A DNA stretch of 54,974 nucleotides, counting the filler, from Sphacelaria rigidula (taxonomy: Eukaryota), in the NCBI GenBank assembly GCA_964200075.2. It is 4 parts of 4 records of this genome, joined end to end, with 100 filler letters (N's around TTAATTAATTAA, not from the genome) between each part and the next. Parts side by side here need not be neighbours in the genome. Positions count along the whole stretch, not along the records: positions 41,308 to 54,974 come from CAXNAA020002735.1; 3 more parts are not named here. The stretch is one strand, 5' to 3'. The notes under the pieces are model-generated. The model saw nothing but the letters and a program-made list of their open reading frames with translations, searched no databases and had not been told where the DNA came from. Positions 21,601-53,598 of the stretch are shown here, piece by piece; position 1 is the first letter of the stretch; the number at the start of each line of letters is the position of its first letter. The position numbers and the translations under genes are program-made.

Positions 21601-22811
21601 TGGGTGGCCAACGAAAGGAAAAACGAGACTTATCGCAAGGGGGGAAATGCAACAGGCAGACATTGACTTTGGTGAATTGTATGCATCTACCGTAGCGGCT
21701 TCGAGTGTACGTTTGCTGACAACTCTTGCCTGTGAGCAGAATCTTTCATTACGCCACTTTGATATCGAGCAAGCTTTTGTGCAGTCAGTAGTGGAAGAAG
21801 ACGTATATATGCGATTGCTTCCTGGTTGTGGTGATTTATGTGGTAAGATAGTGTGAGACTTGTTAGATCGCTCTATGGACTCCGGCAGGCTTCCAGACGA
21901 TGGCACCATCACCTGGCAGGATGCATGAAAAGTCTAGATTTTGATCCGACTTTGGCAGATCCATGTATGCTCTGACTGATGGAGAACAACAAAGTAGTGA
22001 CCACAATGGTGGTACATATAGACGATATCTTTGCTGTAGGGGATGAGGAAAGGTGTGATGGATCTGGCAAGCAACTGAACACAACGGTTCCAGTCAAGGA
22101 TTCAGGAGAAGTGCGGTGGTATTCTGGACTGTATTACGGGAGACTTTTGGAGAGAGGGACACTTACTATTTCAGAACAGACTTTTGCAGAGGAGTTGGTA
22201 GAGGAGTACCATACATCATGGGGGAATAAAACACCGATGAATGCCAGTGTGAAGCTCGAGGATTTCAGTGACAATGAGCAGGTCACGACATTTCCATTCA
22301 GGGAATTGGTGGGGTCGTTGATGTGGCTGGCAAATCAGACAAGACCGGACATTTGCAACGCAGTGAGAGCGGTTGCGAGATATTGCGCGTCCCCAAGATT
22401 GATTCACTTGCGTACTGCTCTTGGTAGACTGAGGTATGTTAGGCGAACTAGTACATTAAGTATTACTTTTCGGAGAGGCAGTTTACCGAGCGTTAGTTTC
22501 CACGCATATGCTGATGCACACTACACGAGTAAGGCAGCCGACAGATGATCAGTGTCGGGGGAACTGGTGATGTGCGGGGGTGGATGCGTCTCATGGTCCT
22601 CAAGGACCCCAAGTTGTGTGATGCTGTCAACATCACAAGCAAAGTACGTCGCTGTGACTAAAATAGTGAAGGAGTTGCTTTTTCCGAGACAGGTGTGGGA
22701 ATTCATTCTGCCTGAAGTTGGACAATCGTGCATTCCTGTGTTCGGGGACAATCAGGGTAACATTCAGCTGGCACAGAACCCCATTACGAACACCAACTCC
22801 AAACACATTGA

Positions 22812-23720
22812 TGCAATATATACATCTCCGGGCCGCGCTCTACCGAGCGTTCCACCGCCGCATCCCGCTCCTCGGTCACCTGTCCTCCAGCCTCCTGAAA
22901 AACACCCACCGACAAGCTCACGCGACGACTGCCCAAAACGACGGGCGTCTTCAAGCGCGGACCAGGCGGAGACATCCGCGTCTTCATGGAGCCCCACAAC
23001 CGCCGAGCGTCGACTCCAATATCCTGAAGCGTCGGTAATCCCATGAGAATAACGCTATCCGACCCCGGCATGATCGCACACGAGATGGGAGGCAACTGCG
23101 CCGGCCCCCAGGAAGTCGTGAAAGTCAGCTTCAGCAGAACAGTACGCTCTGTGACGTAAACATGCTGACACGACGCCGTGACGGCCTGCCGCGCCCCGAG
23201 CGAAAACGGAATGCGCAGCGGCACACTCGGGAGAAGACGCTCCAACATCTCTACAATTTGCACCGACAGACTCACATGACCCGTCAAGTGGGCGCCAGAA
23301 TCCCACTTAGCCTAAACCGCAATGGCTCCACGCTCCCCTTAATTTGGAAGGCACAGTTCCGCAGGGACATTCAGTTCCGCAAACTCCACTGGCAATTTAT
23401 TCGCCCACCGGTGCGCTGCTAATCCCACTTAACGCAACGACTGCGCAAGCTGCACAGGCGTAGACGCCCCGGCAGGTTCAAACGGCACCGCCGGCGGGTA
23501 TGACCCCCAGCCAGCAGACCAAACATTTGGCGAACCTCCGACCGGCGCATCAGCAGGCGTCGCGCCTGGCGCTGCTGCCGATGTCGCCGTCGGCGCCACC
23601 ACCGGCGCCGGCGCAGTGTTTGACACTGTAGAAGTCGACCCCACCTGCACCGCCCGTTGCGGAGCAGCAGCACCTACAGGACGCCGGACCCAGAACCAGA
23701 CCCATGCTGACGCCGCTGCC

Positions 23721-23754
<34 letters not shown>

Positions 23755-24396
23755 AGAACTCGACTGCGGCCCTCCACCGTCGGAGGATCCGCCGCCGCCA
23801 CCCCGATTACCTCGTGTCTTGCCCTTGTGCTGACGATACTGATGGCGCGCGGCATGAGACTGCCCAGACTCTCCACCGGAAGACGTTTGGCAATCGCGCG
23901 CGTAATGGCCGAGCTGGCCACAACAGTGGCAAGTGCCCGCCGCATGCCCAGTATGCTTTTTGATCGCCGCAACCAATTCCGGCAGGGTGATTGTGCTCTT
24001 TTCATTCTCCAAACGAGCAAAAACTCTCTGCACTTGAGTTGGCACTTCTTGAGCCATTGGCACCACCTGATGCCGCACAGCAACCCCTGCGTTAGTCTGC
24101 TCCACACGCCTCTTGTACTTAGAGTACTTCGTAATAAAAGTGCGAGATACACTCTCTGAGTACCTATCCCCATATTGGGGAGGTCGCAACTCTTCCCGCA
24201 TAACCACGGGTGTCGCCATAGCTGTAAGCGACTATCTGCGAACCTTTTGCAGGCCAGCGAACCTTCGCGAATTGCACTTTCCTTGCTTCGTCGCCGCACC
24301 ACCCAATCGTAGGAGCCTTCAAGATCCCGCTGCACGCAGCTTCAGCAAGTCTCCAGCCTGGATCAATCATAGGTCAGCCGCCTTTCTGCAGCGGCC
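22812..24396 (-). mobile_element. Ty3/Gypsy-like gag-protease remnant
   Basis: gag 23674-24219 with CCHC knuckle CHCCGQLGHYARDC. Protease C-terminal region TSWGPAQL..AIMPGSDSVILMGLPTLQDIG is homologous to the elements at 24877 and 41308. Confidence 0.8.
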
Positions 24397-27323
24397 TGTA
24401 GAGTAGTCCACCTCTAGTTCACGTATAGATGCATGAGGAGCTGCAGGTTGATGCATGGAGGTTTGGATATGAGGTTTGCATTATGATATTAGGTCATGAG
24501 ATATTCTCTGGAGTATGACTATGACTGCTTGACAGTAAACGTGTTCAAGGAGGTGCAAGGTTACTTCCGATAACAAACATTGTGTGTTTGTGAACATCAT
24601 CTGTCTTGAAGTCTTCATGCTCTAGTGAGGGAGAAAGCCCTTGGAGCAGTCTTTTGACCTTGTTCTGAGTCCAGGAGGGGTCTATTATAAACGTTTATTC
24701 AGGGAACCCGCTGATTTTTGGCAAAGGTTTTTCTCAGCTGCGGACAGTCTCTACAAAAATATCTTTGTATTGTACACAGACAGGTGTTCAGTCTGTAACG
24801 CGAGGCAGCTCGTTACAACTCGTTGAACGGAGGGACCGCTACGTTGGCTGGAAGCATTGCGAGCAGCTAAGGAAGGATGGCAGCGCGCAGGGAAGGTGGT
24901 GGGAGCGATGCAGGCGATGAGGTGACGTTTAAATTTACTGAGCTTATGCCAGGTAGATTACAAAAAGCACCGGAGTACGGATGGCACGTTATTGAAGATG
25001 CCTCCAGACGTTTTTTTCAAACGCATAAGGATTACGAAGAGACTGTAAAATTGAACAACGAGGGGCGTACAGTACAGGCTGCTCTATTGACGGTGACAGA
25101 ACTCGTGCCTGAGCACATTCGCGCGTGTTTTGTCACGTACAATATTTGACGGATCGATACTCGATTATGAACATCTGAAGGAGGCACTAGGCCGACATGC
25201 AAAATCTTGGATTGATACAGAAATTGATCCTTCAGTTGCTGCAGCGGGTGTGCGGAAGGCGTTGGCCGCTCGCAACGAGCCGACTGCCATGGATAAACTC
25301 GAGGGACAGTGGGGTGCCCTCGAGGAATTTTTTGCCGATAATGCGAGCATCGAGCGCGCGTTCCGCGAGGACGAGAGGTTTAAAGCAGGACCCGCTCAAA
25401 TAATTACGCGGAAATTGCTCGCTGGCATGTCCCCCCCCTGAATTCAAGACAAAAGTGCTCAACATACTGCACATGAAGGGGGGGTGGAAAGAGGACCCTG
25501 GGGTCGTATATGATACGGCTTGGGAAGCAGCAGAGGTATGGAAGACGGTGGAAGCGGCTGATAAACAGCGCAGTCACCAGCCCAGCTGAAACAGAAGGGC
25601 GGCAGTGGGACTTCCGGGTCCAAGCGCGAACCGAATGGTGGAAAAGGGGCGACCACTGGCAGTGAGACTGCAAGTTCCGGGAAATGTCGCAAACCGGGCC
25701 CAAGCTATGCAGGTTGTTTCTCATGTGGAGACAAGCGCCACTTCGTGAAGAATTGTAAGCAGCAAAGCCAAGCTGCTGCTCCACAACATACTGCAGGTAG
25801 GCAGTCGAAGGCCGGCAACACGCAGCAACAATAGCAGCAGCTGTCGCAGGGCCCTGGACAGGTGCCTCGAGGAGGAGGCAAGAGTCCCGCCGCTACAAGC
25901 GCTGTATTTTCAACCGACGGAGGGGGTGCTCCCAGCAGCAGTGGAGCGATTCTGCCGCCAGAACCGGTCATTTCTGCTGGTGGCGTACAGCAGACCGTAT
26001 CGGGGGGGAAAGGGAAACAGTCCCGCACTGGATGTTGTCGTGGAAATCGCTTAAACCAGGTGAGGTATCAGGTTTTCAATTTGAGGATGTACGCGTAGAA
26101 AAGAGGAACGATGGTGTTTCGCCGACATATCTGTACCGAGTGCAGGGGCACAGAGTGTTTGTCAGGTCAAGGCCATTTTAGGCTCGGGATCTGGAATTAC
26201 GACCATGTCTGTGGGTGTAGCGGCGAAATTGCGGTCTACGGTTCCAGATGTTCGAGTGGTTACACCGATGGTTGGTGGACAGCTGGTGAAACTGGCTGGC
26301 GGCAATATTGAGCGCGTGAAGTAGAAAACTTGCCCTGTCCGAACCGCTTTACACACCAGCTGGGGACCGGTTGTGCTAGACCCATGCTAATATGCGGTCA
26401 TGCCGGGTACAGATGACGTGGTAGCCATGGGGAGCCCTACGCTACAGGAGCTGGGCATTGACGTGTACAGTAGTTTAGGTGTTTGTGCACGTGCAAGAAA
26501 CACTTCGGTGCAAGGTGCAAATACGCCTGATTCTACGGGCTGTCGGCGTGTCAGTATCGCGATTGATGCTTTACAGCAACCAGGAGGTCGGGCAGAGCCC
26601 GTTAATTCTTCAGTCGAGAGGTTGTTGTCGAGAAGTCCGGCGATAAGCATATCCCCGGAACAAGAGCTTACTGAGCTTGATGTTGCGCCGGAGGAGGCGG
26701 TACAAGCTGCCGCGGATAACGGCATATATATCGGAGAGCGACGTGAGCCAGGTTCGTGAGCCTGTACGAAACAGAGCAAGAATGTTTCGGTGAGTACTGC
26801 ATGGTTATCCGCCCGCTCGCGTCGAGCCCTTGAAGGTGAAATCCAAACCTGTTGTTGTGGAGGCAAAGGCTCGGCCGAAGGCGTACTTTCCGGTCAGATG
26901 GCGCGGTTGGCACGCTGCATCGTGACATTGGTGGCGCTCGGGCTCGTGTACTGCAGTTTGCAGGTAGTGTGGGGAAGAGCGGCAATTGCAACGCCCAAGA
27001 CGTTCTGTCTTCGCTGGATGGGGGCTTACAAGGCAGGGGAGCATGTCCCCCGTCCCCGCAAGGAGATGGTGCATGGTACTCACCCAGGGGAGGTGTTCCG
27101 TTTCAATATTCCCAGTGTTGGCGAGAGTGGTTCGCTGGGAGATAATGGATTGGACGAAGGAGATCGGTTCAAGTACATATTGGTAAGGATGGATGACCTG
27201 AGCGACTTCGTGCGGTTAGAGCCCGCGGAGTCTTTTACGGCGGCGACGACGGTGGAGCATCTGTTGACATGGTTCAACGCGCTGGGGCCGCAGGAGGGAT
27301 GGGTCAGCGATACGGCATCACAA
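24397..27323 (+). mobile_element. Ty3/Gypsy-like element: 5' LTR (~24397-24817), gag, PR, then deletion joining early pol to integrase
   Basis: LTR starts TGTAGAGTAGTCCACCTC, shared with 43451(-). gag from 24877 has stops and a CFSCGDKRHFVKNC knuckle. PR region at ~26150-26500. Integrase YILVRMDDLSDFVRLEP...WVSDTASQ at 27060-27323. Confidence 0.85.
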
Positions 27324-27440
27324 TAGACTAATGCCGAGATAGCTCCCGCACAAAATGTGCACCGGAGACCGTCCGACAAATCGGCTGCGATCCCACTATT
27401 GGGCTCATTTTCAGTAATTTCGCCCACATGAGAGGCGTGT

Positions 27441-27540
27441 NNNNNNNNNNNNNNNNNNNNNNNNNNNNNNNNNNNNNNNNNNNNTTAATTAATTAANNNN
27501 NNNNNNNNNNNNNNNNNNNNNNNNNNNNNNNNNNNNNNNN
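27441..27540. other. Artificial contig linker
   Basis: N44-TTAATTAATTAA-N44. Confidence 0.98.
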
Positions 27541-27757
27541 AAAGCCACTCTCAATCGTATCATCTACTCTCCATCTCACGAAAACACTGTTCACCCTGGA
27601 CTGCCAAAAACAATAGATGACAAATAACGGTACATTCCTGGCAGTGCATTTACAGTGATTTTCGGGCACCGACTCCGTGCTAGGGATATCTTCTGGCGGC
27701 TAGAACTCAAAAAGATTTGAAAGGCATGTGAAGCCAATTACCTATTCTCCATTCAAC

Positions 27758-28175
27758 AGCCTGGATCCGTGTTTGAGGTTCAACATTTTAATGAGTTTCA
27801 ACTCGAAAACAGTGCTTTCCCTGATCTCAAGCCATGACCAATGAATTTCACATGGACGGCATCATGCCCCCCGACCTCCTCAAAACTATTTTGGGGGGTT
27901 GCCCGTCTTCCGTCCCCCCGAAGCGTATGTGCAAAAGCACCTTTTCGCCTCGATAGCGGGGCGAAAAAGGGGACGTTTTCAGCCCGACATTGGTGCTTTT
28001 GCATATACACTTTGGGGGCACGGAAGACGGGCAACCCCCGAAAAAAATTTCAAGGGGGTCGGGGGGCATGAGGTCACCCATATGAAATTCATTGGTCATG
28101 ACTTTAGGTCAGGGAAAGCACTGTTTTCGAGTTGAAACTCATTAAAATGTTGAACCTCAAAAACGGATCCAGGCT
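27758..28175. mobile_element. Fold-back MITE with ~184-bp inverted arms
   Basis: Arms at 27758-27941 and 27992-28175. The outer 67 bp (AGCCTGGATCCGT...TTTCCCTGA) differ at one position. The 50-bp loop contains its own small hairpin. Confidence 0.88.
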
Positions 28176-29525
28176 CTAATTTCCTAGGGCTAGACCCTCA
28201 CGTTATAACGGCAGTCAACGGCACACGTTGTGCAAAACCTTCAAGTTGACAGAGCCAGGCATGGGGCACTCAGATGGTGCGCATTCATGTGTACCCTAAT
28301 GTTGATGTTTGCTGTCCGCGCGAAAATAGAGAAACATATGTGACTCCTGAAACATGACGCCTTTCCAGACGCAGTATCGGTGCACGTCAAATACAAGACA
28401 ACTGAAAGTCTTTCTCACTTCATTGTGACTTGTGACAATGCAAAACATATTGGATACTGTGCCAATTTGATCTCCCGTTCTCGATCTCAGAAAACCTTCT
28501 CGATCCCAGTTAAGTGCCCCACCATGTTTCGGGGTGTAATGGTATCTCCCCTACATCAGTACAGCGTACGATTACTGAAGCACGGTCGACCCCTACAGCG
28601 AAGTAGCGGGCACAATACATAGATGATGTCAACCGGCGGCTGGCTTTTGGTCGGACGCAAAAAACGAACGCCGTTCGTGTTTGTCCAGATGTAACGGTCC
28701 GAAATACATCCGCCCCAACACGTCAGATTGAGGTAGACCAAGTTCAACATGGGACGTCAGATAGCCTGCTGAACAGTAGCGGCCGGCTAGAAGTTTGCAC
28801 GTGGACCATTTGCGATATCACAGTCCGACACCCAGTAGCTGATTGTTGCGTACCATTACTTGACTCTTCGGTGAACCAACACGCCGGTCAGCCACAGACG
28901 CACCTCCACAAGACTTTCCTGTACGGAAGTATGAGAATCCAACACACGACAAAAGCAACACCGCCTTTGAAAAAGAGGCGATGAATAAGCCAGATCACAC
29001 CCCCTTGCCAAAAGCACCCATTACCCGAAGACCAAATACAAGGGCATGATAAGCCGGTGAATTAGTCGCCCCGCCTCACAAATACAGTACCACCCAACAT
29101 CAAATATCGAAAAGGCCTAGTTATCGTGTCGCAGCATATTTCAAAACAGCGTATATCATGTCATCGCGGATTTTGTCCTGTCGCCGAACTCGCACACCAC
29201 CACGCGGCGATCCTGACTCATGTTGGAGCCCCCATGCCATCATGAATGCACCCGGCCAGCAGCTAATATTTCCGACTGTAATATCGACACGCATTGACTG
29301 CCAGCCATACACATCAATCAATATTTTGGGGCATTGGCCAGAACAATCGGCTTCATCGGGATGGTTGATTTCACCGGGAACCTTCTTTCTACTGCTGCAA
29401 GTAGCACATACCGCCTATGACGCTGGCTTAGCCATGGTTGAGGGAAGAGCCCATCACTATTTACGAAAACAGGACTCGCCAGTCACATCCAGTACCAGCG
29501 CCAACGCTAACAACAGCATCATTGC

Positions 29526-32500
29526 CTAGTCCTCGTCCTCAGAGTTATCAACATTATCACCATCACCATCACCATCACGTTCTTCATCTTCATAGCCCTC
29601 ACCATTAGAATCGTCTCCCTTGTGCTTCCTGTCGACAGCGCCGTTCTGTATATACAGAAGGAGAAACCAGAGATGAGAACGGGGCGCATCGTAACACAGC
29701 GACGACACACATCCTACACGAAGTGCAACGCTCCCGACGACGAGTGCGAGGAATGTCATTCACCTCAACATATTCGCAAATAACACCCCGCGCATATACT
29801 GGACAGGCTTTCCACAAAAATAACACCTCACACCGTGACCGGGGCATTGCGATTTCCTCCGTTACCATTCCAGGTTACCCCAGTACATGTGAGTCTAATT
29901 GTCGACCTAAACAAATACCCCTGAGCATCGGAACAAATACCATGCATCTTGTTCAACACAGGTAACGTTATTTTACCGTTTTGCCATTGGCGTGGTCCCC
30001 GTTCTCCTCGTCCCCACTTTCGCGCTCATCATCCTCATGCTTCTTGTGCTTGCCACCACCTTTTGCAAACGAACCCCGAAGCAAGCGCCCATGTCGAGTG
30101 ACGAAATTTGAAATATGTACAGCAATCTGGGCGAGCGCATGGCGATGCCCTACTTTCAACACATGGCCAGTAGGGTATTTCTGCAGTCACAATTCAACTT
30201 ATCTTGGATTGTCTGCCGGAGGTGACTTGGAAAATCCAACCAGATGCCGACTGATCGTCAAGCAATGTTTTTCCTCCGTATGGGGGACAAGGACACAGAA
30301 AGTCGTGAAAATGAGGACTGGATCCCATAAATTTTTACACGAGGTGAAAGCATGAGTAACATCAAAACAGTCACGACAATAGTGCATCGCACTGGGGTAG
30401 TAGTTGCACACGATATTCACCTCTTTCGTCATTCTTGCTCCTGCCCTTGTCCCTGCTTCTGCTCCTGCTCCTGCTGCGGCTCGGTTCCCTCCGCCTGTTC
30501 ACACCGTAGAAAAAATGGTGGGGGAGTGGGGTAACTGTGTGTACTTTCACAGCTTAGAGAGTAACGAGGAGAATATTTGTGCATCAATATAGCTATAAGT
30601 AGCAGCGATTCAAATATTGGCATCAAGTCCATCTGAGCGGTTGATAGCTCCAAGCTTGTGGATGTAGCTGGTGCTGAGCCCGGCACCATTTTTCGATCTT
30701 GAAGCTCCTTGCTACTTGAACCCTGGCTCATCACTGCGGATTCGCGACCGATCACTCATGACTCATCCACGGTATTTCTCGCCGCTGCTCGTTCGCTCCT
30801 TTACTCCACAATTTCGCGGGTAAAGACCATCAACAATATGCGTGCTACAGAGCGAAATCTGTTGCTGTCCTACCGTGAAAGATTTGTACCATCAGTTGAA
30901 CGCAGAACTGGCCGCCGCTCGATCATCTGCTCGATATGCACCCTACACGGCAGAGGGAGGACACTGCAGCTCCAGCGTTTATACACTACTGCAGAGTAAC
31001 GTATCGATTGACCTCGACAGTTCATCTGGTGCTCACAGTCGCGTCTTTCTTTTCACTACTAATGTCGAGTAAAGATCAAACAGATTCCATTTTACAATAT
31101 GTTGCCCTACACGTTAGCTTTTCCCATGACTTCATCATCACCTCCCTCACCCCCCCCGCCACCACGAGACACCAAGATTTGAAGCCTGCTTCGGTTACTT
31201 CAGTTCTTCACTTCACGACTTTTGTACCTGCCCTCTATCCTATCAAGATGGGACGAAAACAAGCGGCTATCAAGCATGGTCAAGACCACCATCATCTCGT
31301 TTTCTCACCACAGTCGCACTAAGTTGCATCGACATGCCGAGCGGTTACGCAAATAACAGGGTCAGTGCACCATCAAGCCTGAAATTATGCAAACACGCGG
31401 GATTCAGATGGAGACTTGAGGCTTCTGCATGGTCGCACTGCTACTAAAAGCTGAAGGCTGTGCACCACAATACCTCTTCTTGCCGCGGGAACGGGACCGG
31501 GAACGGGAGTAGGAGCGACTGCGCCTCCGGGCACTGCGAGACCGGCTGCGGCTACGGCTGTGGCCTCTCTTGCGCTTGGGCGGCGGGCTGTTGACAGGAA
31601 GCATCGAGGGGCCAAGAGGTCAGACCGTTATAAAAACAAGAGAGGGTATTGTTTCTCGACTAGCCCAGGCCTCAGCGGTGAAGATCTGAATGGAGCGAGA
31701 ATATTGGACACAAGATACCACATCAAGAGAAGGTCTCCTCACAGTACAGATACAAAGGATTCACAGTATCGTACAGTCAACATAAACACGACAAGTCAGA
31801 CAAGAAGCAGACGCCGTAACAAGTTCCGAGGACCGGTCGAGTAGAGTACGTACTCTTGAATACTCGGGTGAAATATTCGAGTATTTACTCTACCGAACGC
31901 TTGGATAGACTGGGCACGGCCTCAATATTTTACTCAAATTTCGGGTAGACTGGGTATGACCTCTATACTCTAACCAAATTTTGGGGAGATTGAGTACGAC
32001 CTCAACTACTCTACTCAAATGTTGGGTAAGCACCCTCAGCAGTACTTGGGTATATGGTATCACTTGGGTATGACCTCAATGACTTACTCAAATTTTGGGA
32101 ACTAAAGTATGACTTTTCAAAAATACGAGTATTGAGTATACTCTACTCGACCTACCCTTGAACACATCTTCCGAAACGAGATGGAGCACACCTCGCGATA
32201 GGTTTAAGCGCAAAGCATGTCAACATGTCAAGAGGGTAACCCCTGATACTCGTAAACGGCACTGTTCACACACGCTCGACGCAAATGAAACATGATTCTC
32301 GAAGGAAATGAGAGATCACCTGCGGGAGCGGGAGAGGGAGCGGGAGCGGGAGCGGGAGCGGCGACCCCTTGAGCGCGATCGGGATCTGCAAATCCGACCA
32401 CAATGCAGCAAACAAACGAAAAGACAAGCGGGAGGCAGCGGCGGGAGGGAATCGATACACACATCAGTGTCGGTGACAAGGCCGGTGCTAAAATGACGGC

Positions 32501-41207: not shown

Positions 41208-41307
41208 NNNNNNNNNNNNNNNNNNNNNNNNNNNNNNNNNNNNNNNNNNNNTTAATTAATTAANNNNNNNNNNNNNNNNNNNNNNNNNNNNNNNNNNNNN
41301 NNNNNNN
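41208..41307. other. Artificial contig linker
   Basis: N44-TTAATTAATTAA-N44. Confidence 0.98.
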
Positions 41308-43451
41308 AGAGCCTCAACCGCGATGTTGATACGTCGACAATCCTTGAATTCAGGCGTGTCTACACCACGCACCGAAGTGTTTCTCGCCCGCGCACAGGCA
41401 CCTAAACTACTGTACACGTCGATGCCAAGCTCCTCTAGCATAGGGCTCCCCATGATAATGACATCATTAGTACCCGTCATGACCGCATAGGAGTATGGGT
41501 CCAATACAACCGGACCCCAGCTGGTGTGCAAAGCGGTGCGGACAGGGCAAGCTTTCTGCTTCATACGCTCAACATTGCCACTTGCCAATTTCACCAACTG
41601 TTCACCAGCCATCGGTCTCAACACTTGGACATCTGGAACCATGGCTTGCAATTTCGCCGCCACACCAGCTGACATGGTCGTAAGTCCAGATGCTGAATCT
41701 AAAATGGCCGTGACTGGACAAACACCCTTTGCCCCTGCACTCGGGACAGACAAGTCGGCAAGACACCACCTTTCCTTGTGATCTACGTGCAGACCCTCAG
41801 ATTGAAAACCTGACACCCCACCCGCTTTGAGCGATCTCCATGCTGGCACCGCCGCAGAGTTCGAACCCGGGAACGAGTGCGATGAGATGGTCTGCTGCAC
41901 GTCACCAGTAGAAGCGACCGGTTCTGGTGGCAACGTCGCCCCCCCGCCGGGAGCACTTTGTCCATCGGCTGAAAAGACAGCCCTTGTAGGAGCGGGACTC
42001 GTGCCCCCTCCGCGAGGCACCTGTCCAGGGCCCTGCGACAGCTGCTGTTGTTGCTGCTGCTTGTCGCCAGCCTTCGTCTGCCCACCGTCACTACGTTGTG
42101 TAGCAGCAGCCTTGCCTTGCTGCTTGCAATCCTTCCGGAAATGGCTCTTGTCTCCACATATGAAACATCCTGCATAGTTTGGGCCTGGTTTGCGGGTTTT
42201 TCCGGAACTGGCACTTCCATTTCCACTGCTCGCCGCTTTTCCACCATTTGGTCGGCGCTTGCTTCCGGAAGTCCCGCTGCCACTCCTTTGTTTCAGCTGC
42301 GGCTTCTGACGGCGCTGCTTATCTGCCGCTTCCACCGTCTTCCATGCCTCCGCTGTTTCCCGAGCCGTGTTAAACACAAGCCCAGGGTCCTCCTTCCACC
42401 CCCCCTTCATATTCAACATGTTGAGGACTCTAGTTTTGAATTCGAGGGGGATCAGTCCATTCAACATTTCCCGAGTTATGATTTGAGCGGGTCCTGGTTT
42501 GAAATCTGCATCATCGCGGAACGCACGCTCAGCGCTAGTATTCTCCGCAAAAACTTCCTCCAGGGCACCCCATTGCCCTTCTACTCTTCCCATTGCAGTT
42601 TGCTCGTTGCGGGCCGCCAACGCTTTCCGCACACCAGCAGCAGCAACTGAAGGATCAATCTCTTCATCCTGCCAACATTTCGCGTGAAGGCCTAGTGCCT
42701 CCGTGAGATCATCTTCGTCAAGCACGGATTCGTCAAAAATCGCGCGTGACAAACACGCACGGATGTGCTTCGGCACCAGTTCAGTAACAGTCAGTAAGAC
42801 GGTCTGCACACTACGTCCTTTGTTGTTCATTTTGACCGCCTCTTCATACTCGACGCTGATAAAAACGTCGGGACGCATTTTCGCAAAAATGCCGTCCGTT
42901 CTCTGGGGCTTCCAGCGATCCTGCAGGCATAAGCTCAGTAAACTTAAACTTCACCTCTTCGCCTGCATCGCCATCGCCCACTTTCTTGCGCGTTGCCATA
43001 GCTGTACGCAACAGTTCCAGCCAACCTAGCCGTCTCTCCGTTGTTAGTGAACTCCCTCACTTTACAGAGTGCACACTTCTGTGTACAAAGTCTGATATCA
43101 TTTTTCCGCAGCTGCCCACAGCTGAAAAACCTCTTCCAGAAACTAGCGGGTTCTTCTTAATAAACGTTTATTATGAAGCCCTCCTGGACTCAGAACAAGG
43201 TCACAAGATTGCTGCAAGGGCTCCCTCCCTCACTAGGGCCTGGAGACTTCAAGACAGTTGTTATTCATAAACACACAGCTTTCGTCATCGGAAGTAACCA
43301 CATGCGTGGAGCATGTGATGTTCAAATCCACATAGTCTGCCGATCAGACCCGCAGGTCCGTCAACCAATAGAAAACGCCTACAGCAGATTGTTCCACTTG
43401 TATATCATCATGAACCTGCACGTACGTGTACTGGAGGTGGACTACTCTACA
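41308..43451 (-). mobile_element. Ty3/Gypsy-like element 5' half: LTR (~43042-43451), gag with CCHC, aspartic protease; cut by contig end
   Basis: Long open gag-PR frame from 42878 to the contig edge, with CFICGDKSHFRKDC and AILDSASG. Co-linear homologue of 24397-26580, including the LTR start TGTAGAGTAGTCCACCTC. Confidence 0.9.
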
Positions 43452-44253: not shown

Positions 44254-46738
44254 TACCGCATACTCCGCAACTCGGAAGCCGCCACCCCTGACGCAACGCC
44301 CGCGGACAAACCCCGCCTTTCTTTCTTCCCTCACGAGGCCACTTGGCTCGTGCATACCGTGCGAGATTTCTCCACCGAGTTTTCGGTAGACAACGCCCCC
44401 CAAAGCTCCAAGGCCCTCTGAACTACTGTCTACCATAGGACCTCAGTTGCCTTGGGTCTATATTTGTACAAAGGCGCGCAACTCCCGGTGGCAGATCTGC
44501 ACGCTCTGACGCTCGCCCAGCTTGTGGCACACGCCCAAACGGGCCTCAATGATAGTGCCGGTGCCTACAACAGGGCCGCACATAGCCTTTTGCAGGTCTT
44601 ATGGGACGCGTTTCAGTGCGGCACCTCCGCTGACGACGACAACGACAACGACAATGACAAATGGGCTCCCGTCACCGCAAACAGTCGGCCGCATCAACAC
44701 CACGGCGACAATGGTGACCGCCTGGGTGGCGGACGCGAGGATCGCCGCGACGATTCCGGATCCTCCGGTAGAGGATGCCGGGGACTTAATTCTCGACGAA
44801 CGGTTCGTAGCAAACAATACCCGAAGTGGGAACGCACGGGATCTGTCTAGTCGGACAGCTCATCCCGCAATCCCCGTCACAGGAGTATGTCAACGACTGA
44901 CCTGCCGTCAGTTAACTCCATTAATGTCAGGCAAGACACACCTCGTTTAGCTGATGTATCCCACGAGTTATTAGGTTTGTCTGACACTGATGACAAAGAT
45001 CGACCCTTGCCTTCTACCTCGGCCCGCACTTCAGTTGCCGCCGCGGCTAGCCAAGCGAAGACCGCAGCCCGCGAGGCTGCAGCAGCTGCTAAGGCTGAGG
45101 CTGCTCGGGTAGCTGCTATCCAGAGAGAGTACTACAGATTGATGTCAAGAAACTTTGGCATATTAACACCATGCCCGCAGCGGACAATGAATACTCAGGA
45201 CAGTTTACCTAGAGTCTTATTCACTCCATCCGTCGTACTGTGCACAATATTTTGCAATTAGCGGATCGCACGGGTGCTCAGCGTTTCGAAGATCCTGTTT
45301 GGGTTGATGGTTGGTAGAAGCCGTTACATAAGGCCCAACACCACGCCATCTCTCACCGCTCGCCTGACCTTGCCTCTTCACTGACGCAGATCATCGACGG
45401 GTTTATCGCAGCGATAGATTCGGACTGTGCCTCGGGGCGAGCTGACCCAACGATACTCCGTGATTTGGAGCGGCGTCTGACCGGCTACTTTGATCGTAGT
45501 ACGCAGGGTAGCTCCATTCAGCGCCTGAGTTCGTTTGGTGTCGCCACAGACGTGCCGTTTTCCGACAACCTTCGTCAGTTCGAGTTGTTGTTCTCCAGTA
45601 CTTTGGGGACTGAACGCCAGAGTGGGCCTTCTGATTACATGTGTCAGTCTTATGTCCGTACGAGTGTGTCTGAGCAGTTCCCGGCATTGATGCCGTCGTT
45701 GTTTCCGTGTGCCCTAGCACACCGCGAGGTGCCTTACGCCTCCGTAGACCCAATATGGATAGCTTTTGTCCATCAAGAAAGCAATCTCACTCCCGTCATT
45801 CGGGGTAGAAAATATTTGTCTTCGCGTTCACAGCCTGCCGCTGTCTCCTCCGCGAACGCCTACGGGTCTCGCGGACGGAATTCGAGTTTATCTCGTGCTA
45901 CATGGACCCCCGCCTCTGTCGCCAATTCAGTGATGAGTTTTGAAAGAAACAAAGACCCATTCTGCGCGAGCTTTGACGCATGGCCGTACTCTGAGGAGAC
46001 ATGGGACGATGTTTATTTGACTTCTACAACAGCTTTTGTGACGGATGATCCCCATTCGTGGAACCCGCTTCTATCTTCTTCGGCTAAAGACGACGCTTTC
46101 AGCCGCCACACCAACAAATATGTCAATTGTAATGTACAAGGCCATAGCATGCGTGACTGTGACAACTCATGCATAAATGCGTACGATCTCATGAACTCTG
46201 AACTACAAAGCAATGAACCCGCGTGGCGCCGATGGCAAAAACGAATGCGCGACTATCGCACTTCAAATCGAAATAGTTGCCACCACTCGAATCCCGCGGC
46301 AACTATACCTCTAATCACGAGCGCCGACAAAACAACAACCATACTTCTGGCACTCGCCAACGAGATAGTACCTCTCGCGTCAATCATAGTTCCGCTGATA
46401 GACACCGGCGAACAAGACCGACACATAGCTCGAACCCCAACACCAGAAACCCTGGTACCTTCACTTCGGACCGCCTAGATCCATGACGTGACAACGTCGG
46501 CGTCCTAAAGTCTTCGGCGCCGCCGACAGCACTTTCGAAGACTTTTTCAACACCGCCCGCGAAACTAGCGACAAACATTTCTCGCTCAGTTTCCCCGGCA
46601 TTACGCAGGAGCACTAATGACGGCCTCTCGAATCGACCCCCGTCTTCATCACCTGGCATACAGCGTAACAGGAGCACTTATGACGGCCGCTCAAATCGAC
46701 CCCCGCCTTCACCTCCTGGCATACAGCGTTAACAGTTG

Positions 46739-48728
46739 CACACCCTGGACAATACAATATGTAGTATATATTGCCCGCACAACATGTCGACGCGTCGGGT
46801 GGTCAATATATATTGGGCGAGCAATATGATGGCACGAGAGAGGGTCAATATATATTGTGCCATCAATATGCCAAGGCCTGCGACATGCAATACATATCGA
46901 CCGAACAATATACCACGACACACCCCACCTCAATATATATTGGCCAAGTAGTATGTTGGTGCGAGAAAGCACCAATATATATTTGTCGAGTAATATGTTG
47001 GCTGCTGTCAGAAAATGAGGCTGTGGAGCCATGCCCTTCAACGCTTCGTATGGTATTGACTTTAAATATATATATGTATGTAGTGTTGGGATCGCAGGTA
47101 TACCGGTCACGAAGGTTTGGTCTGATGTGAGGGTATGATGTGGGATAGCAGTTGTGATACATGAATCACTCTCCTCGGTTGACCGTTCAACACGGTGGGT
47201 TGTTTGTANNNNNNNNGCAAGAGGCACCTTGAACATCATCTTCTGTCTACACTCCAGAGCAGCTTGTCTGCTTGCTTGGCTTAAGTGCCATTGCGCCAAC
47301 TCTAGCGATCACGTCAAGGGGGTCATCGCGACACTTTTCTAACAGCTGCCACACGAGGTCAATATATATTGATGATTCGATATACTCAACACCCGAGGCG
47401 TCAATATATATTGCCCCGCCCCAATATGCCGTGCGTTAATGCGTCCAATATATATTGGGCGGACACTACACGAGGGAACCGACGGTCACATTACATTTTG
47501 ATGTAGTAATACATTTTGATTTTCAACATGTATATTGGGAAGTGTATTGGAATTAGTATAATGAGCAACTCTATGTTCGCGGGCGCCATTGAAAGATGTG
47601 TCACTACATGCCGAAAACGCTCAATATATTCCTCCGCAAAGTGTTCAATATATATTGGCTGCACGATAGCTATGCGATGAGCGTGCGCAATATATATATA
47701 TATATATTGGAAAAACAATACTTTTGCATGGTTTGCGTTCAATATATATATTATGGCAACAATATGCTACGCATCGCTTCGACTCAATATATATTGACAC
47801 TTCAATACGTACAAGGCCGGCATGCACTATATATATTGAATGTTTTATTCCCGGAGCAAATGCATGTTCAATATATATTGTCATACATTACTTCATGATC
47901 ATGGCAGGAGCAATATATGTTGTTGCTTCGATGTCTTCGAGAACATCTCAACACAATATATATATATATATTGAAAGGACAATATTTGAGCTGGCTCCAA
48001 TACAAAGCATTGGTATCATATTGGAACATATTGTATTGTCCAGGGTATAAGCAACATAGCCCCGGTGACCACAGGGGTAACAAAAGCCGCATATCGACCC
48101 GCGTTTTCTGTCATCGTGATGTATAGCCAAGATATACTAACTACATGCTGTGAAGGGGATGGGCGGTCTCGCACCGGTAGCCATATAGGTATCAGAAGGC
48201 GTATATACCGGGTCGCCTCTTCTGTCGCCGCCTTTAAAGCTTTCAACAACTCTCCGTAGTTTTGCACGCGGACTTCTGCGGCTCCCTTTAAAGCTTTTCC
48301 CAATCTGGACGGGCTCCGGCATCCATCGCGTCTGGATCTTTCTTCAAGCGTACACCATAATTATAATGTACAATATATATTGACCGGCCAATACATAAGC
48401 ACCCACGTGGACCCAATATATATTGACCGGTCGATATGTTTTCATCAATGCGACCCTAACATATATTGGCCGTCCAATATGCTGTCGCCCACGCTGCCCC
48501 AATATGTATTGATGGGACAGTAGTTGTTCAACCCCACAGTGCCAATATATATTGGGCGGGCAATATGTATGCAGTCCCACGACATCAATATATATTGGGC
48601 TCGCAATTCGTTTGCAGTCCAAGGGTACCAGTATATATATATATATATATTACGCCGGTAATATATCGCAAAATTTCAATATGATCGACTAATATGTGTT
48701 GGAAACATATTGTATTGTCCAGGGTGTG
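46739..48728. mobile_element. Non-autonomous TIR DNA transposon, perfect 24-bp TIRs, 8-bp TSD AACAGTTG
   Basis: Left end AACAGTTG(46731-38)|CACACCCTGGACAATACAATATGT(46739-62). Right end ACATATTGTATTGTCCAGGGTGTG(48705-28)|AACAGTTG(48729-36). An extra internal right-TIR copy lies at 48026-48049 and a small N gap at ~47209. Confidence 0.93.
46762..48690 (+). repeat. Phased 42/43-bp repeat-spacer array (CAATATATATTG-N6-CAATATG-N17/18), three blocks
   Basis: Unit starts in block 1: 46762, 46804, 46846, 46888, 46931, 46973. Block 2: 47360, 47402, 47446 ... 47646, 47688, 47740, 47785, 47827, 47869, 47911, 47954. Block 3: 48371, 48414, 48457, 48500, 48543, 48586, 48629. Confidence 0.9.
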
Positions 48729-51700
48729 AACAGTTGCGTGAACTCACGACTTAGCTCTACGCTCGGCTCTGGACTTGGTCCTCCAGAACTGAGTGTAAAT
48801 CTGAGGTGTGGGAACACCAGCCGCCCGTTCCTGAGACAGAGGCTTCCCTCACCGACGGCACGCGCAGGCGGTAGTGTATCTAAGTCGACTGGTTCGAGTG
48901 TCGCTGGTCTCAATTTGACCAATTCGGGCCAAGTAACACCCACCCAGCTCGAAACAGTTCGTTCTTCGCGTTCATTACACAACGCAAACCTACCCCTAAC
49001 AGTTTCCAAGAAAAGTCGTCCTAATTTACAATCGGCTGTGACTCCTCAGCCAAGCTTGCCAACGGAAAGTCCACAAGCTTCGCCCAAGCATGCCGCGATG
49101 CTGAACCCATCCACACAACTGGACGCACTTATGGTGCCCCAACAAGCTTTGGAAGTTCCCCAACCATCGTCGCGGCCAAAGAGAAAGCCCCGTAAAGGTG
49201 CCCCAAGGAAGCGCGCGCATCATCACGTACACCTCTATCGAGCCGAAAACCTCGACCTCAATCTATTCAAAATGCGACGACTTTGCGCTCGACGGCTTTA
49301 TCAAGCATCCCGGACGAAACAACTTGAAATATTTATGACGCCACTGCTTCTTCAATCGACGGTCCTAACAACGCACAATCTGGACCCACCTTGGATGTTA
49401 ATCCCTGTCTACCCACGACGGCCATTTACGAAATTGCTCATGATCAGTCTACCCGTGCCTCACCTGGGAATAATATACCGTCGACCACCTTTTCTAGTGA
49501 AAAACCTGACCCACCGGCGGGTCACCCCCCGTCCGTTTTTGCTGTCAGCCCCGCCGATCCTGACCAATTTACCTTGCCAAAACATGGCCCGGATCTTGTC
49601 GGCGGTAAAGTGTCTGTGGACCCGACCACTTTCACTACCCGCGTCACGATCCACTCTGATCCAAACGCTACCACGCCTACGACATGTGTATTCCTGTTGG
49701 ACAGCAGCAGCCCGCAAACATTCATTCGACATTCAACATGGGGACACATGAAACAGACTGGCGCTGCTATCGCAGCTTGTGAAACCACCACCCAACCTCG
49801 AGTATGGGGCGGCTTCGGCGATTCTATCGCATCTCTGACAACACTAAAATCCGCACGTCTCAGTATGCAATTGTTTCACAACACCACTCGTTCTGCCAGC
49901 CTGGCCGCCTGGGCATACATTGTCCCCGACAGCACCATGCATCACGCCATATTATTGGGCAGAGATAGCTATGTGCGGTTTAATAAACGAAGCTACCGCA
50001 CGCTTCTACCAGTATCGCCACAACCCACGTCTCGTGGAGAATGCAATCTTGAAAACTTTGGTACACTCCACGGTGCTTCGGCCTACCAAAAGAATACTCA
50101 AACAACCGGAACTACTTACCGCCTACGATACAATGGTAGTGCTGGTATTACACTCTTCGACGATCCTCAACTTTTAAAAGTTGCACTAGTTTGCCGAAAT
50201 GGCATGCCTGCACTAACGGAGCATTGTCGTGCCGAAACGTTACCCCGTATTGGTGCACCAGCTGACACAGAACATTTTGTCTCGGCGGGACAACAACTCC
50301 TCCCTCTTACGAGACATGCTAACTTCGAACCCGGCGATATTTCAGGAATTGCCGCCGCTTCCCTGATGCGCATCCCACTTGAGACGTGCGTAACAGAGCC
50401 TGCCGAGCCCGACGCACCATCTCCGACGAAGTCAGTCCATTGTGTCAATGAACCTTCTTTCAACCTTGCCTCTGCGATTCCACCCCAGGTCCACACCGTG
50501 GATCTCGCCTAGTCAAATTCCGATCCTTCTGCTGACGTGCTTCAACGCTTATCACCAGATTCTCGGAATAGTTTCTTGCAAATGTGGCACCAACTACCGT
50601 CACACATATGCGTGATATCAATTTTGACCTTCATGGGCCAGGCTGGGAGCCAGCAGTCATCCAAGAACTCAGTGACATCCTGCTGCAGTACCAGGCTCGA
50701 TTTTCCGGATCCAATGCAGATCTTGGGTACTGCAAAACGCTGCCCTTGAGGTTACACTCCAACCCGGCGTCTTGCCAATATCGTCGCAACCATACCGGAC
50801 AAACCATTCCGGACAAACCATTCCGGACAAACCATACCGGACAAACCAAATCCTTACAAAAAAATTAAATGCCATCTTAGATGGATTTTTGGGAGCGGGA
50901 ATAATACAACATTCCTCCACTCCTTGGGCCTCGGCACTTGTGGTCGTCCCCAAAAATGATGGAAACATACGCATAATCGTAAATTACCAAAGGTTGAACC
51001 GCGTCACCGTGATTGGTAAGCTTCCAATCCCACGCATTGATGAAGTCTTCGACTCCTTACGCAAAGAAAAAATGTTTAGCACCTCCGACCTCGCTTCTGT
51101 ATTTTTCCGGAATGCTATCCACCCTGACACAGTCCCACTTACGGCCATCTGTACATCGTCAGGACTTTACGAGTGACTTCGAATGCCACCAGGCGCTGCC
51201 ACTGCCCCGGGGTGCTTTCAATGCTTAATGCAACGCATCACCGAGGGTCTCGAGCACATCATTATGTACCTAGAAGACGCTATCCCTTTCGATGCCTCAC
51301 TTATTGCACACATCCGAACTCTACGAGCATTCCCCTCTCGCCTACGAACACACGATTTGAAACTGTCTCCATCCAAAGCTCGCCTTGGCGCGACTGACTT
51401 GGATTTTCTGGGACATTCCATTTCGCCGGCAGACCTACATCCGGATACAAAGGCAGAGCGATGACTGACTTGCCAATGCCAAGCAAAATTTCTCAGCTTC
51501 GCTCTTTGTTGGGCGGACTATCCTACTACCGCAAATTTTCGCCGCATTCATCCAAAGGGATTTTCCCCTTACTGAGCTACTCAAGAAAGCAGCCGTGTTC
51601 ACCTTCACCACCGGTATGGAGAATACCCCCCGCGAATTGCTGAAAATGCTCACCGAAAAGCCAGTACTCTGTTTCCCTGATTGGGAGGCAATACAAAATG

Positions 51701-53598
51701 GCTCTCGCCTTTTTCAACTACACACTGACGCCAGTACAGACGGATTTGGAGGAGTTTTGAATCAACCTCAGGTTGACGCCTCCATTCGCCCCATCCCCTG
51801 TGTCAGTCGTGCCACCCTGCCCAATGAGGCCAACTTGAGCCCGCTAGAATTGGAAGGCGGAGTAGTCACCTGGGCCATTAAGCGCCTCCGACAATACATG
51901 TTTTACGTGCCATTCGAGATCTACACGGATCATGGGGCACTCGAACAACTCGCCAAGGTTGGCGAACACAATCCGCGTGTACAACGATGGTTGAAATTTC
52001 TAACAGCGTACCAGTATACCATAAAGCACCGTCTAGACAAAACCAACAGAAACGCGACCTTCTTTCCCGACTACCCCTGTCGCATACGACCGCAGATTTC
52101 AGCCCGGCTTGCCGTTTAAGGGAGCCCGATGAACCTGCGATTTACCGTTTAAGACGTTTTCAACGCCCGTTTATGCCCTCGACCTACAGTGCCCAGAGAC
52201 TGGTATGCACATGGGCGGTCTTCGCCCTCCACCATATGACGCCGTCTTGGATAAATCCCACTACCTGCGATTTTGTCGATTTCTGCGCATGTGGTACTCG
52301 CGCGAAGCTTTTCACGGAGACACCTTCGGTCATTCAACTGATCTCCGATAACACGCGCTCCCGGTCTGCCGCGGCACCACGCCCCCGAGTGCCCCGCCGC
52401 CACCGATAACACCTACAAATCCCACGAGCCACGCAGCACCGGTTGAACGGACCAGCACGCAACGCTCCGCGAAAAATACTGCAACATCCACCACGCTCCG
52501 CGAAGAATCTTTGCCGCGCACTGCTACAACCTCGCCGCCCATAACGGCGCCACCTACAGCTACCGCTCCCGAGCATGGAGCCGAGGACTCAGCTCCTGCT
52601 CCCGGGGCAGATATTGACGTCGGCATTTCTGCCCCGTCGCCTATTCCCCCGCTGCCAATCCCACCATGTCTGTTCGACCCTCCAGCGGAAGATCACCTAC
52701 GCGAGTTTCTCGCCAGCTACTCTCACCGTGATTGGGCTCGCGAACAAAACGCGGAACCGTTGTTTCGCGCAGCCATCCGGTACTTACAAGTTGACTGCTC
52801 GGTCTCTTTTCCATCCGCCCTTCTGGCCCCAGTTGGCACACTGCCACCACCAGATATCTCCAACGTATACGGACTCGTGCGTAAAGGCACCATTTTTACT
52901 ACGTATGAAGGTGTACAACTACTCGTGCGTCGCCCCACGCCTTTGACGGGCACAATTTCCTCCTCAACCACGGGACGCCACGCACGACTACTCGATGACG
53001 AACCAATGCGCATCTATGTCCCATTATTAATGCGCCCCTGGTTCATGAAGGCTTCCACACGGACTTGCCATGTCACCTTGGCGTCACTCGCACCTTAGCG
53101 CTCCTGGAACGCTTCTACTGGTGGGTTGGCATGGAAATTCCTGCTCGCTTCTGGATTCGGCGATGCTTCAAATGCCAAGCTCAAAAAACTTCACGACAGA
53201 CAGTACGCTGGCCCGTCATCTCTGTGGGACTCCCCAACACTCCGGGCCACTTTGTGTCCTTTGACTACTTTGTACCTCCCTGGAAAGCGCTCTGCTCGCT
53301 GTTGTACCTCCCTGTTTTCCCCCTTCTTTTTGCTAGGATGCCGAAGTAATTTGTGCTTCTCCGTTGATCGCTAGCACGCAGAAGCAGTATGTGCTTCCGC
53401 GTTTCGAAGCAGTCTTTCTGCTCCTTTAAGCAGTGTATGTTTCCCTTACTTTTTTTAGGTGTGGGAGTGGGTACGGGAGTATTTCCTTAGGAGCTTTATC
53501 AGCCGTTCATGACTTCACGAGGAAGGAAAACCTTAGTTTTCGCTGCTTTGAGGATAAAATCCTCGCAGCTGTAATAAGGGTTCGTCTGGGTGGGTTAG

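Follow-up and report, generated by a model that had tools for sequence, protein, structure and literature searches.

Repetition of a transposase-binding motif within a DNA transposon is a known architecture, represented by Galileo, Foldback, Hermes and Emigrant, and these are the systems against which we set the locus described here. In Galileo (of the P superfamily) and in the Foldback-like transposons of Drosophila, including Tetris, tandem repeats in the ends carry extra THAP sites (PMC3688188, PMC4079207). The repeats internal to the terminal inverted repeats (TIRs) of Galileo were shown by EMSA to hold sites for the THAP domain (PMC3688188), and it has been suggested that extra sites of this kind make binding specific and let the transposase assemble into higher-order multimers (PMC3688188, PMC4079207). 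All of these repeats lie in long inverted termini, mirror-oriented, as units of ~140–220 bp with few sites. In the hAT elements (Hermes, Ac/Ds and Tol2), short end motifs are bound by the N-terminal DNA-binding domain of the transposase, a palindromic pair is bound cooperatively, exact phasing matters and the target duplication is 8 bp; in Hermes itself, BED domains bind the subterminal repeats, phasing is critical and the motifs, 4–5 bp long, are spaced irregularly and not arranged alike at the two ends (PMC10368747). Emigrant MITE/Lemi1 (pogo-like), taken together with the IR/DR of Sleeping Beauty, supplies the non-autonomous case, in which the subterminal motif repeats the TIR's inner (3') half, each end holds two or three sites and TA is duplicated; in Emigrant, the transposase of an autonomous relative binds this motif cooperatively (PMC1636448).

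Two prokaryotic systems complete the comparison. The sopC site of plasmid F, a bacterial partition site that is immobile, is made up of 12 near-identical 43-bp direct repeats, a spacing of about four helical turns, and every one of them contains a 16-bp inverted repeat to which the dimeric protein SopB binds (PMC3177203). TIGR units give 36-nt RNAs with two spacers of 8–12 nt flanked by box C/D motifs, both repeats being bounded by box D (UG) and box C (CCA), and the arrays adjoin a Nop-domain (Tas) gene in prokaryotes and their viruses (PMC12045711).

What, then, is the locus that has been likened to CRISPR and TIGR arrays? It lies in a window (the whole 54,974-base stretch of DNA that was analysed) of an algal genome, and its features, in the order in which they stand, are as follows.

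46731–46738, no strand: left copy of the target-site duplication, AACAGTTG, 8 bp, found again behind the right TIR; empty-site contigs hold a single copy.
46739–46762, plus strand: left TIR, 24 nt, 100% complementary to the right TIR.
46762–47000, plus strand: array block 1, with six units (each a 12-mer, a 6-nt spacer, CAATATG and a 17–18-nt spacer) and a period of 42–43, placed by motif spacing, unit alignment and polarity.
47001–47344, no strand: nested insertion of a different and more abundant repeat, outside the canonical element, recognized by contig joints and depth.
47345–47531, plus strand: array block 2a, four units (47360, 47402, 47446, 47489), continuing the register of block 1 when the nested insertion is taken out.
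47532–47645, plus strand: degenerate array stretch with motif fragments only and lower family depth.
47646–47995, plus strand: array block 2b, eight units, two with the core expanded to (AT)8–9, placed by motif spacing and unit alignment.
48026–48046, minus strand: a third TIR copy, internal and oriented like the right end, found by inverted-repeat pairing.
48047–48370, no strand: segment outside the array, separating the internal TIR copy from block 3, with no in-register motif.
48371–48671, plus strand: array block 3, with seven units spaced exactly 43 bases apart and the core of the final unit expanded to (TA)9.5, placed by motif spacing and unit alignment.
48705–48728, minus strand: right TIR, 24 nt, forming the inverted-repeat pair with the left TIR.
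48729–48736, no strand: right copy of the target-site duplication, AACAGTTG, 8 bp, read from the sequence and from empty-site contigs.

The stretch from 46739 to 48728 is a copy of a non-autonomous DNA transposon of the cut-and-paste type, which is present in the alga at very high copy number and encodes no protein. Its mobility is demonstrated at both ends and at empty sites: unlike sequence stands directly before 46739 in 67, 84 and 102 contigs of sequencing runs X1, X3 and X2 and directly behind 48728 in 48, 52 and 63 contigs of the same runs (with 60 further contig breaks at 48730 in X3), and contigs join 46666 to 48729 across the missing element in 2, 3, 4 and 1 cases (X1, X3, X2 and X6), a second such joint running from 46668 to 48732. 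The TIR 19-mer has 3 matches, where 0.01 would be expected. Depth within the element exceeds that of the flanks by several-fold to tens-fold, and in three DNA runs 8,123, 9,444 and 8,888 contigs align at ≥80% identity to a 2,451-base stretch (the element, its flanks and the nested repeat), these contig counts and summed depths not being copy numbers. A further run, X6, guessed to be RNA, has 164 contigs on the stretch, and contigs of this kind cannot show transcription. Perfect TIRs, a target duplication that is single at the empty site, presence at many genomic places and the lack of an internal transposase gene together describe a class II non-autonomous element; the only ORF of at least 130 aa within it (46709–47308, minus strand) belongs to no Pfam family. 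The element is inserted within an LTR-retrotransposon-like repeat, and self-BLAST finds no further copy in the window. The setting is eukaryotic by its retrotransposon RT/RNase H, by an ORF with zf-TAZ and by run labels that are algal (one reads “algae metagenome”). The original prediction of a eukaryotic DNA transposon is supported.

To which superfamily might it belong? An 8-bp duplication, which hAT elements share with the P, Zisupton and Merlin superfamilies, is common to several groups and is therefore not diagnostic of hAT; that of Galileo is 7 bp. Elements of the hAT group have YARNG-type terminal bases and prefer targets of the form nTnnnnAn, and the present element does not fit these features: its ends start with CACAC, and the loose-end consensus of the flanks is AAATATTT up to the left end and GAATATTT from the right end, with an agreement of ~0.4.

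The array inside this element is as real as the element. The palindromic 12-mer CAATATATATTG, which is two inverted CAATAT half-sites, occurs exactly 13 times in the window, always within 46804–48586; at ≤1 mismatch, all 17 matches fall inside the element, and at ≤2 mismatches, 25 of 28 do, with 3 outside (14374, 28441 and 54226). A third half-site, CAATATG, follows 6 bp downstream and completes the unit, and 25 such units stand in a 42–43-base register. CAATATG (≥6/7) is found at offset +18 in 9 of the 25 units (five of six in the left block, three of seven in the right) and at +20 in two more, and its reverse orientation has no consistent offset among the 25. Intervals are 42, 42, 42, 43 and 42 in block 1, exactly 43 for six successive intervals in block 3 and 42–44 in block 2, save for units with a core expanded into (AT)n. 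With the nested insertion removed, the phase test gives R = 0.87 at 42.3 bases, the maximum for random placement being 0.59 (n = 500). The motif array, the regular period, the common polarity of all blocks and every spacer string quoted in the original prediction are thus borne out. A single polarity runs across the whole element with no mirror symmetry between the ends, and the sites fill the interior, beyond the subterminal 100–200 bp.

Each of the transposon systems resembles the present family in part and differs from it in part. In place of the mirror-oriented termini of Galileo and the Foldback-like elements, there is a one-way array of more than 20 short units with a palindromic site, a 42–43-bp period and an 8-bp target duplication. 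In place of the short, irregular motifs of Hermes, a palindrome of 12 bp and a half-site recur together at regular intervals in tandem, and in place of the few sites and TA duplication of Emigrant and Sleeping Beauty, there are about 25 sites and a duplication of 8 bp. A short motif is nonetheless repeated (25 units) inside the ends and is related to the inner TIR, as subterminal repeats are: the inner 7 nt of the left TIR (46755–46761) are CAATATG, the second motif of the array.

We consider it probable, reading element and mechanism jointly, that the array is a set of tandem-duplicated predicted binding sites for a transposase, and docking sites of this kind are most likely what it represents, rather than a CRISPR- or TIGR-like guide array. 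Protein binding and a role in transposition are what we infer from several observations, among them the differential conservation of the unit (12-mers are on average 0.866 identical in pairwise comparison, motif 2 copies 0.46 and spacers 0.276), the recurrence of motif 2 as the inner TIR and a phase held at 42.3 bp over the element. Of the two models that had been offered for the array, the evidence thus favors the one that invoked phased protein-binding sites. The family's transposase would dock on the motifs through a sequence-specific DNA-binding domain and would bind the palindrome as a dimer; a 42.3-bp period is about four helical turns (at 10.6 bp per turn), so all sites would lie on one side of the helix. 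Protein so bound could bind cooperatively, become concentrated at the ends and help in pairing them. The array may have grown by tandem duplication, as the residual homology of spacers within blocks and the two-unit differences between copies suggest, after which lineages that kept their motifs would have kept transposing while their spacers drifted. Among the 19 ORFs of at least 130 aa tested in the window, none matches a DNA transposase, whether of hAT type (with BED finger, DDE and hAT dimerization domain) or any other.

Could the array instead be a passenger, a 42–43-bp minisatellite that arose in the transposon and was carried along without a role, its conservation only apparent? The units are indeed head to tail and of one polarity, they vary in number among copies and they share a common ancestry, as those of a minisatellite do, and single polarity together with a filled interior fits such a passenger as well as it fits designed ends. 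The spacers, which the original prediction took to be essentially unrelated, are not: their in-register identity of 0.276 exceeds that of all 1000 shuffles (0.2496 ± 0.005), and 7 of 300 spacer pairs are at least 50% identical where 1.4 would be expected, all 7 being within-block pairs and the best (48543 with 48586) reaching 70%. Tandem Repeats Finder reports a 43-base repeat at 48533–48638 with 74% matches, and BLAST finds a unit-shifted self-match of 48458–48567 with 48372–48481 (69% over 113 bases). Spacers can thus be aligned to one another, as had been proposed for an old minisatellite, though weakly; for most unit pairs, the homology is slight. Copy-to-copy joints that skip 85 and 86 bases (two units each) demonstrate the variation in unit number, and a palindromic AT core is prone to slippage, with (AT)8–9.5 runs in three units.

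Against the passenger stands the manner of decay. Neutral decay should erode all columns alike, whereas in the 25 aligned units, the 12-mer columns hold 1.2–2.1 bits, motif 2 holds 0.24–0.97 bits and most spacer columns hold <0.3 bits. Nor can mutation bias have spared a motif only because it consists of A and T, since variable places in X1 are as frequent at reference A/T (133) as at C/G (116) and CpG is not depleted (observed/expected 1.12 in spacers and 1.08 in flanks). Among the best-supported 40 of 481 differences between the family majority and the present copy, 10 lie in motif columns, and 9 of these 10 shift the present copy toward the motif consensus; the majority of the family thus has better motifs than this decayed copy. 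That the second motif is the inner TIR sequence also counts against a passenger. We therefore regard a neutral minisatellite as unlikely.

It is quite unlikely, in our estimation, that the sites are bound by something other than a transposase for another purpose, such as maintenance of an episome, phasing of chromatin or nucleosomes or a cluster of TATA-like promoters. A dimeric protein of the host or the element might, for example, form a phased nucleoprotein array, like that of SopB on sopC, for the maintenance of excised circles, or the sites might phase nucleosomes (4 × 42.5 = 170 bp). The palindrome does suggest a dimer, the phasing is strict and the sites occupy the whole element rather than its ends alone; sopC, with its direct repeats of 43 bp and its inverted-repeat sites, offers a precedent, in form only and with no sequence relation (PMC3177203). 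However, motif 2 as the inner TIR ties the motif to recognition of the ends, no partner gene is known and nothing in the window or the runs favors episomes or promoter activity.

Very unlikely is a stronger version in which the array is a loading platform, where more than 20 dimers of an element or host protein would line one face of the helix as a filament-like nucleoprotein. Such a platform might keep both ends, or the DNA once excised, in one place or might tether it to chromatin, and it would be a eukaryotic, mobile counterpart of arrays of the sopC/SopB type and a transpososome architecture undescribed for eukaryotic DNA transposons.

There remains the possibility named in the title of the original prediction, that a transcribed array is cut into ~42-nt guide RNAs whose 6-nt and 17–18-nt spacers steer a partner protein to targets. 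Its attraction is plain enough, as each tandem unit has two conserved repeats and two variable intervals of conserved length, which is the likeness to TIGR-Tas, and both strands fold better than shuffled sequences (z = −3.2 and −3.7). We set the folding aside, since pairing between neighbors is to be expected of any self-complementary repeat. The spacers themselves speak against guides: family contigs in three DNA runs align across them at 80–99% identity, and 280–520-base pieces that cover several units differ by ~13–16%, where unrelated spacers would limit identity to ~59%. Copies therefore have the same spacers in the same order, contrary to what copy-specific gain or loss in an active array would have given, and the spacers are, as noted above, related to one another; the array has been copied by transposition, without acquisition of spacers. 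Nor do their matches elsewhere in the window exceed chance, with none at ≤2 mismatches and 6 at ≤3, compared with 3.75 for shuffled spacers. The observation that no cas or tas gene is visible holds for the 19 unspliced ORFs of 130 aa or longer that the window contains, 11 of which lie within ~5 kb of the array: none has a Nop, Cas or RuvC family, and no Rfam family is found in the array. Nor does the geometry agree, with units of 42–43 nt, spacers of 6 and 17–18 nt and repeats (CAATATATATTG and CAATATG) that lack CCA; the 36-nt RNAs, 8–12-nt spacers, box C/D motifs, Nop neighbor and prokaryotic or viral host that mark TIGR-Tas in the cited passages (PMC12045711) are none of them present here. 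CRISPR, whose spacers are specific to a locus, come from foreign DNA and stand beside cas genes in prokaryotes, fares no better, with spacers that are here family-wide and interrelated, no Cas family among these ORFs and a eukaryotic setting. A guide array is, in short, close to refuted.

Searches elsewhere did not extend the family, of which the metagenome and viral collections searched contain no member. A 19-nt piece of the TIR matches five loci of the metagenome collection, once each and with no 12-mer nearby, which we take as chance, and neither the unit pattern nor a pair of 12-mers at a 42–43 spacing occurs in the viral contigs (0 matches for each). Two loci in bacterial MAGs among the prokaryotic genome contigs have one palindrome pair each, in an operator-like setting, and are unrelated. 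The literature searched contains no paper with the 12-mer string, and nothing specific to this family was found in that on algal transposons.

Why should an array of predicted transposase sites matter? In part, because a false lead can now be dropped; an array of CRISPR/TIGR-like kind in a eukaryote would have been remarkable, and the array here is none. It also offers a natural example of a non-autonomous transposon, with thousands of contigs per run, that appears to owe its success to multiplied, helically phased, predicted binding sites. With its genome and partner transposase in hand, such a family would be well suited to asking what effect site number and phasing have on competition for transposase, how a minisatellite originates within a transposon and which of the superfamilies with an 8-bp duplication is active in this algal lineage.

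Two details of the present copy deserve a word. The first is the nested insertion, which contains an assembly gap (47209–47216), has short inverted ends and a 3–5-bp duplication (read from the sequence) and reaches a depth of up to 87,763 in X1, compared with ~15,000–32,000 in the array. Most members of the family are without it: 10, 11, 9 and 3 contigs of X1, X3, X2 and X6 join 47000 directly to 47345, skipping 344 bases, and 32 loose ends at 47005 in X3 continue straight into the next array unit. With the insertion removed, the interval from 46973 to 47360 becomes 43, and blocks 1 and 2a join in register; the three blocks originally described are thus in part an artifact of this copy, insofar as the first division is concerned. 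The degenerate stretch that follows block 2a has a depth of 6,472–8,426 in X1. Apart from the later insertion and one 324-bp segment, the body of the element is a 42–43-bp tandem array.

The second is the internal TIR copy at 48026–48046, whose outermost 3 bases have diverged and which has no matching target duplication. We considered whether it might pair with the left end (46739 with 48046) as a smaller mobile unit and rejected the idea, as AACAGTTG does not follow 48046 and family contigs read through. Because many of these continue into 48047–48226, the internal copy is sequence of the family, and the internal and outer right ends can be aligned with each other, (AT)n unit included.

The array-bearing stretch from 46739 to 48728 is mobile and has defined ends; real, non-random, and neatly organized, it is a non-autonomous DNA transposon in which putative binding motifs have been multiplied in tandem, a new family within a kind already known.

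Features of the element, by position in the window
46739-46762, left terminal inverted repeat (TIR), 24 nt, a perfect match to the right TIR
47001-47344, insert from a different repeat family, nested in the element and containing an 8-N assembly gap at 47209-47216
48026-48046, third TIR copy, in right-end orientation
48705-48728, right TIR, 24 nt, a perfect inverted repeat of the left TIR

Immediately outside both TIRs lies AACAGTTG. Contigs of three DNA runs and of one run of uncertain kind were aligned to 46500-48950 at a likeness of at least 80%, giving 8,123, 9,444, 8,888, and 164 contigs in the four runs, counts that include the repeated flanks and the nested repeat and not the element alone. 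Each of the three DNA runs has 67-102 contigs that turn into mutually unlike sequence exactly ahead of 46739 and 48-63 that do so exactly after 48728; an empty site, with 46666 joined to 48729 and a single AACAGTTG, appears in all four runs (2, 3, 4, and 1 contigs). The loose ends at these two borders yield a flank consensus, at an agreement of about 0.4, of ..AAATATTT just upstream and GAATATTT.. just downstream of the element, and there are hints that the family targets an AT-rich, palindrome-like 8 bp resembling the element's own AATATT core. Summed depth over the array is about 15,000-32,000 in X1 (one of the DNA runs), against 9-16 for single family contigs, which points to something like a thousand copies or more, a rough figure since summed depth is not copy number.

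The flanks of the element are repeated sequence too. Because downstream ORFs (50676-52119) match RT_RNaseH (86 bits, 2.3e-24) and, weakly, RVT_1, the element has inserted in an LTR-retrotransposon-like repeat. Directly upstream of the insertion, a 63-bp unit is duplicated (46606-46735; 2.0 copies, 89% matches), and the empty-site contigs have it once only; in the retroelement flank just outside the element, a minus-strand match to the Rfam family mir-9338 (48753-48802; 30 bits, below the gathering score of 98) is probably chance. An 8-bp target duplication is compatible with hAT and also with P, Zisupton, and Merlin. We have withheld an assignment to hAT, since neither the CACAC at the termini nor the flank consensus, AT-rich and palindrome-like, fits the end and target patterns of that superfamily.

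Three blocks of units had been described, and the blocks are indeed present, but the separation of block 1 (46762-47000) from block 2a (47345-47531) is due to the nested insertion: with it removed, the two are contiguous and in register. The insertion is missing from most family members (47000 joined to 47345 in 10, 11, 9, and 3 contigs of the four runs), is also marked by 32 loose ends in a second DNA run (X3), is bounded by short inverted sequences (TGTCAGAAAA ... TTTTCTAACA), shows a duplication of 3-5 bp (GCTGC / CTG), and belongs to a repeat more abundant than its host element, with summed depth to 87,763 in X1; run contigs span the gap within it. The third TIR copy arose by an old duplication of the right end within the element and belongs to the family sequence: its surroundings align with the outer right end, (AT)n unit included, family contigs continue through it, and 48026-48046 has no matching target duplication.

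As for the array, the region is as the original prediction described it, with motif copies, 42/43 spacing, and single polarity all borne out. The palindromic 12-mer CAATATATATTG occurs in 13 exact copies in the 54,974-base window, all within 46804-48586; one mismatch gives 17 matches, all within the element, and two mismatches give 28, with 25 inside it and 3 outside. Anchored on 12-mer matches, the units of block 1 are spaced by 42, 42, 42, 43, and 42 bases, those of the middle block by 42-44 (save where the AT core grew to (AT)8-9.5 runs), and those of the last block by exactly 43, six times. A phase test gives a period of 42.3 bases with R = 0.87, the maximum among 500 random placements being 0.59. 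Across 25 aligned units, columns of the 12-mer hold 1.2-2.1 bits, those of the second motif, CAATATG, 0.24-0.97 bits, and those of the spacers mostly <0.3 bits. Of the 25 units, 9 have CAATATG at offset +18 and 2 others have it at +20, and because it has no consistent placement in the opposite orientation in these units, left and right blocks share the same polarity. The palindromic core has become an (AT)8-9.5 microsatellite in three units (47690-47707, 47956-47971, and 48632-48650); in both right ends, the expansion hits the last unit ahead of the TIR.

What might such an array do? We favor predicted transposase-binding sites over a neutral minisatellite; of the two models first offered, phased protein-binding sites are preferred, and a transcribed guide array is not supported. 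The spacers had been called essentially unrelated, which was overstated: their in-register identity is 0.276 (shuffles, 0.2496 +/- 0.005; 0 of 1,000 as high), and 7 of 300 spacer pairs reach at least 50% against 1.4 expected, all 7 within one block and the top pair at 70%. This residual homology, a 43-base repeat at 48533-48638 (74% matches; Tandem Repeats Finder), and unit-shifted self-BLAST matches running through the spacers indicate that the units derive from tandem duplications. Pairwise identity of the 12-mer is 0.866, with spacers near random, and mutation bias does not explain that conservation, since variable places in the family (X1) number 133 at A or T reference bases versus 116 at C or G, and CpG is undepleted (observed/expected 1.12 in spacers and 1.08 in flanks). 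Motif columns account for 10 of the best-supported 40 of 481 majority differences, and 9 of the 10 restore the motif consensus, so that this copy has decayed from source elements whose motifs were better. B-DNA has 10.6 bases per turn, and a 42.3-base period, being four turns, would put every site on one helix face; the palindromic form of the site suggests binding by a dimer. The second motif is identical to the TIR's inner 7 bases, the same relation that transposase-bound subterminal repeats bear to the TIR in Emigrant/Lemi1 and Sleeping Beauty (PMC1636448). Tandem repeats carry transposase sites in Galileo (PMC3688188), and Hermes has subterminal repeats with a critical phase (PMC10368747).

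Unlike classic mirror-oriented subterminal sites, the array has a single polarity and extends through the whole element body, which leaves room for a platform-type nucleoprotein resembling sopC/SopB in form (PMC3177203), a role we consider unlikely.

That the array might be a guide-RNA-type analogue of CRISPR or TIGR strikes us as extremely improbable, and its spacers, shared in order between copies and weakly alignable to one another, are what the original prediction itself had named as counting against it. Family pieces of 280-520 bases, several units each, differ from this copy by about 13-16%; motif columns make up 45%, and unrelated spacers would hold identity to about 59%, so spacers and their order are common to copies. 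What sets copies apart is the presence or absence of whole units (skips of 85 and 86 bases), not new spacers. In the rest of the window, spacers have no matches above the level of shuffled controls, no Nop, Cas, or RuvC family matches any of 19 ORFs of at least 130 aa, and Rfam has no family in the array. TIGR, as defined in PMC12045711, requires units of 36 nt that hold two spacers of 8-12 nt, repeats that each carry box C/D motifs, a gene for a Nop-domain protein next to the array, and a host that is a prokaryote or one of its viruses; the array departs from that description on every sequence-level point. Good RNA folding energies were dismissed as support, since any self-complementary repeat folds so.

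In two bacterial MAG contigs (L006, 3142-3195; L007, 6984-7037), the 12-mer palindrome occurs as a pair spaced by 42 bases, and more half-palindromes lie close by in an AT-rich intergenic stretch of operator-like look; these pairs are unrelated to the algal element. The longest ORF in the window (41256-42950, minus; 564 aa) combines a zinc-knuckle pattern, CX2CX4HX4C, with a long stretch rich in Gly, Ser, and Gln; it matches no Pfam family, enters an N block, and has the appearance of a gag-protease region from another retroelement. The stretches at 13672-13771, 27441-27540, and 41208-41307 each consist of two 44-N runs with 12 bases between, which has the look of masking or scaffolding and not of biology. 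On the plus strand at 9423-10394, an ORF scores 27 bits for a TAZ zinc finger; in the protein collection only two proteins, both derived from assembled runs, are related to it, with identities of 99% and 83%.
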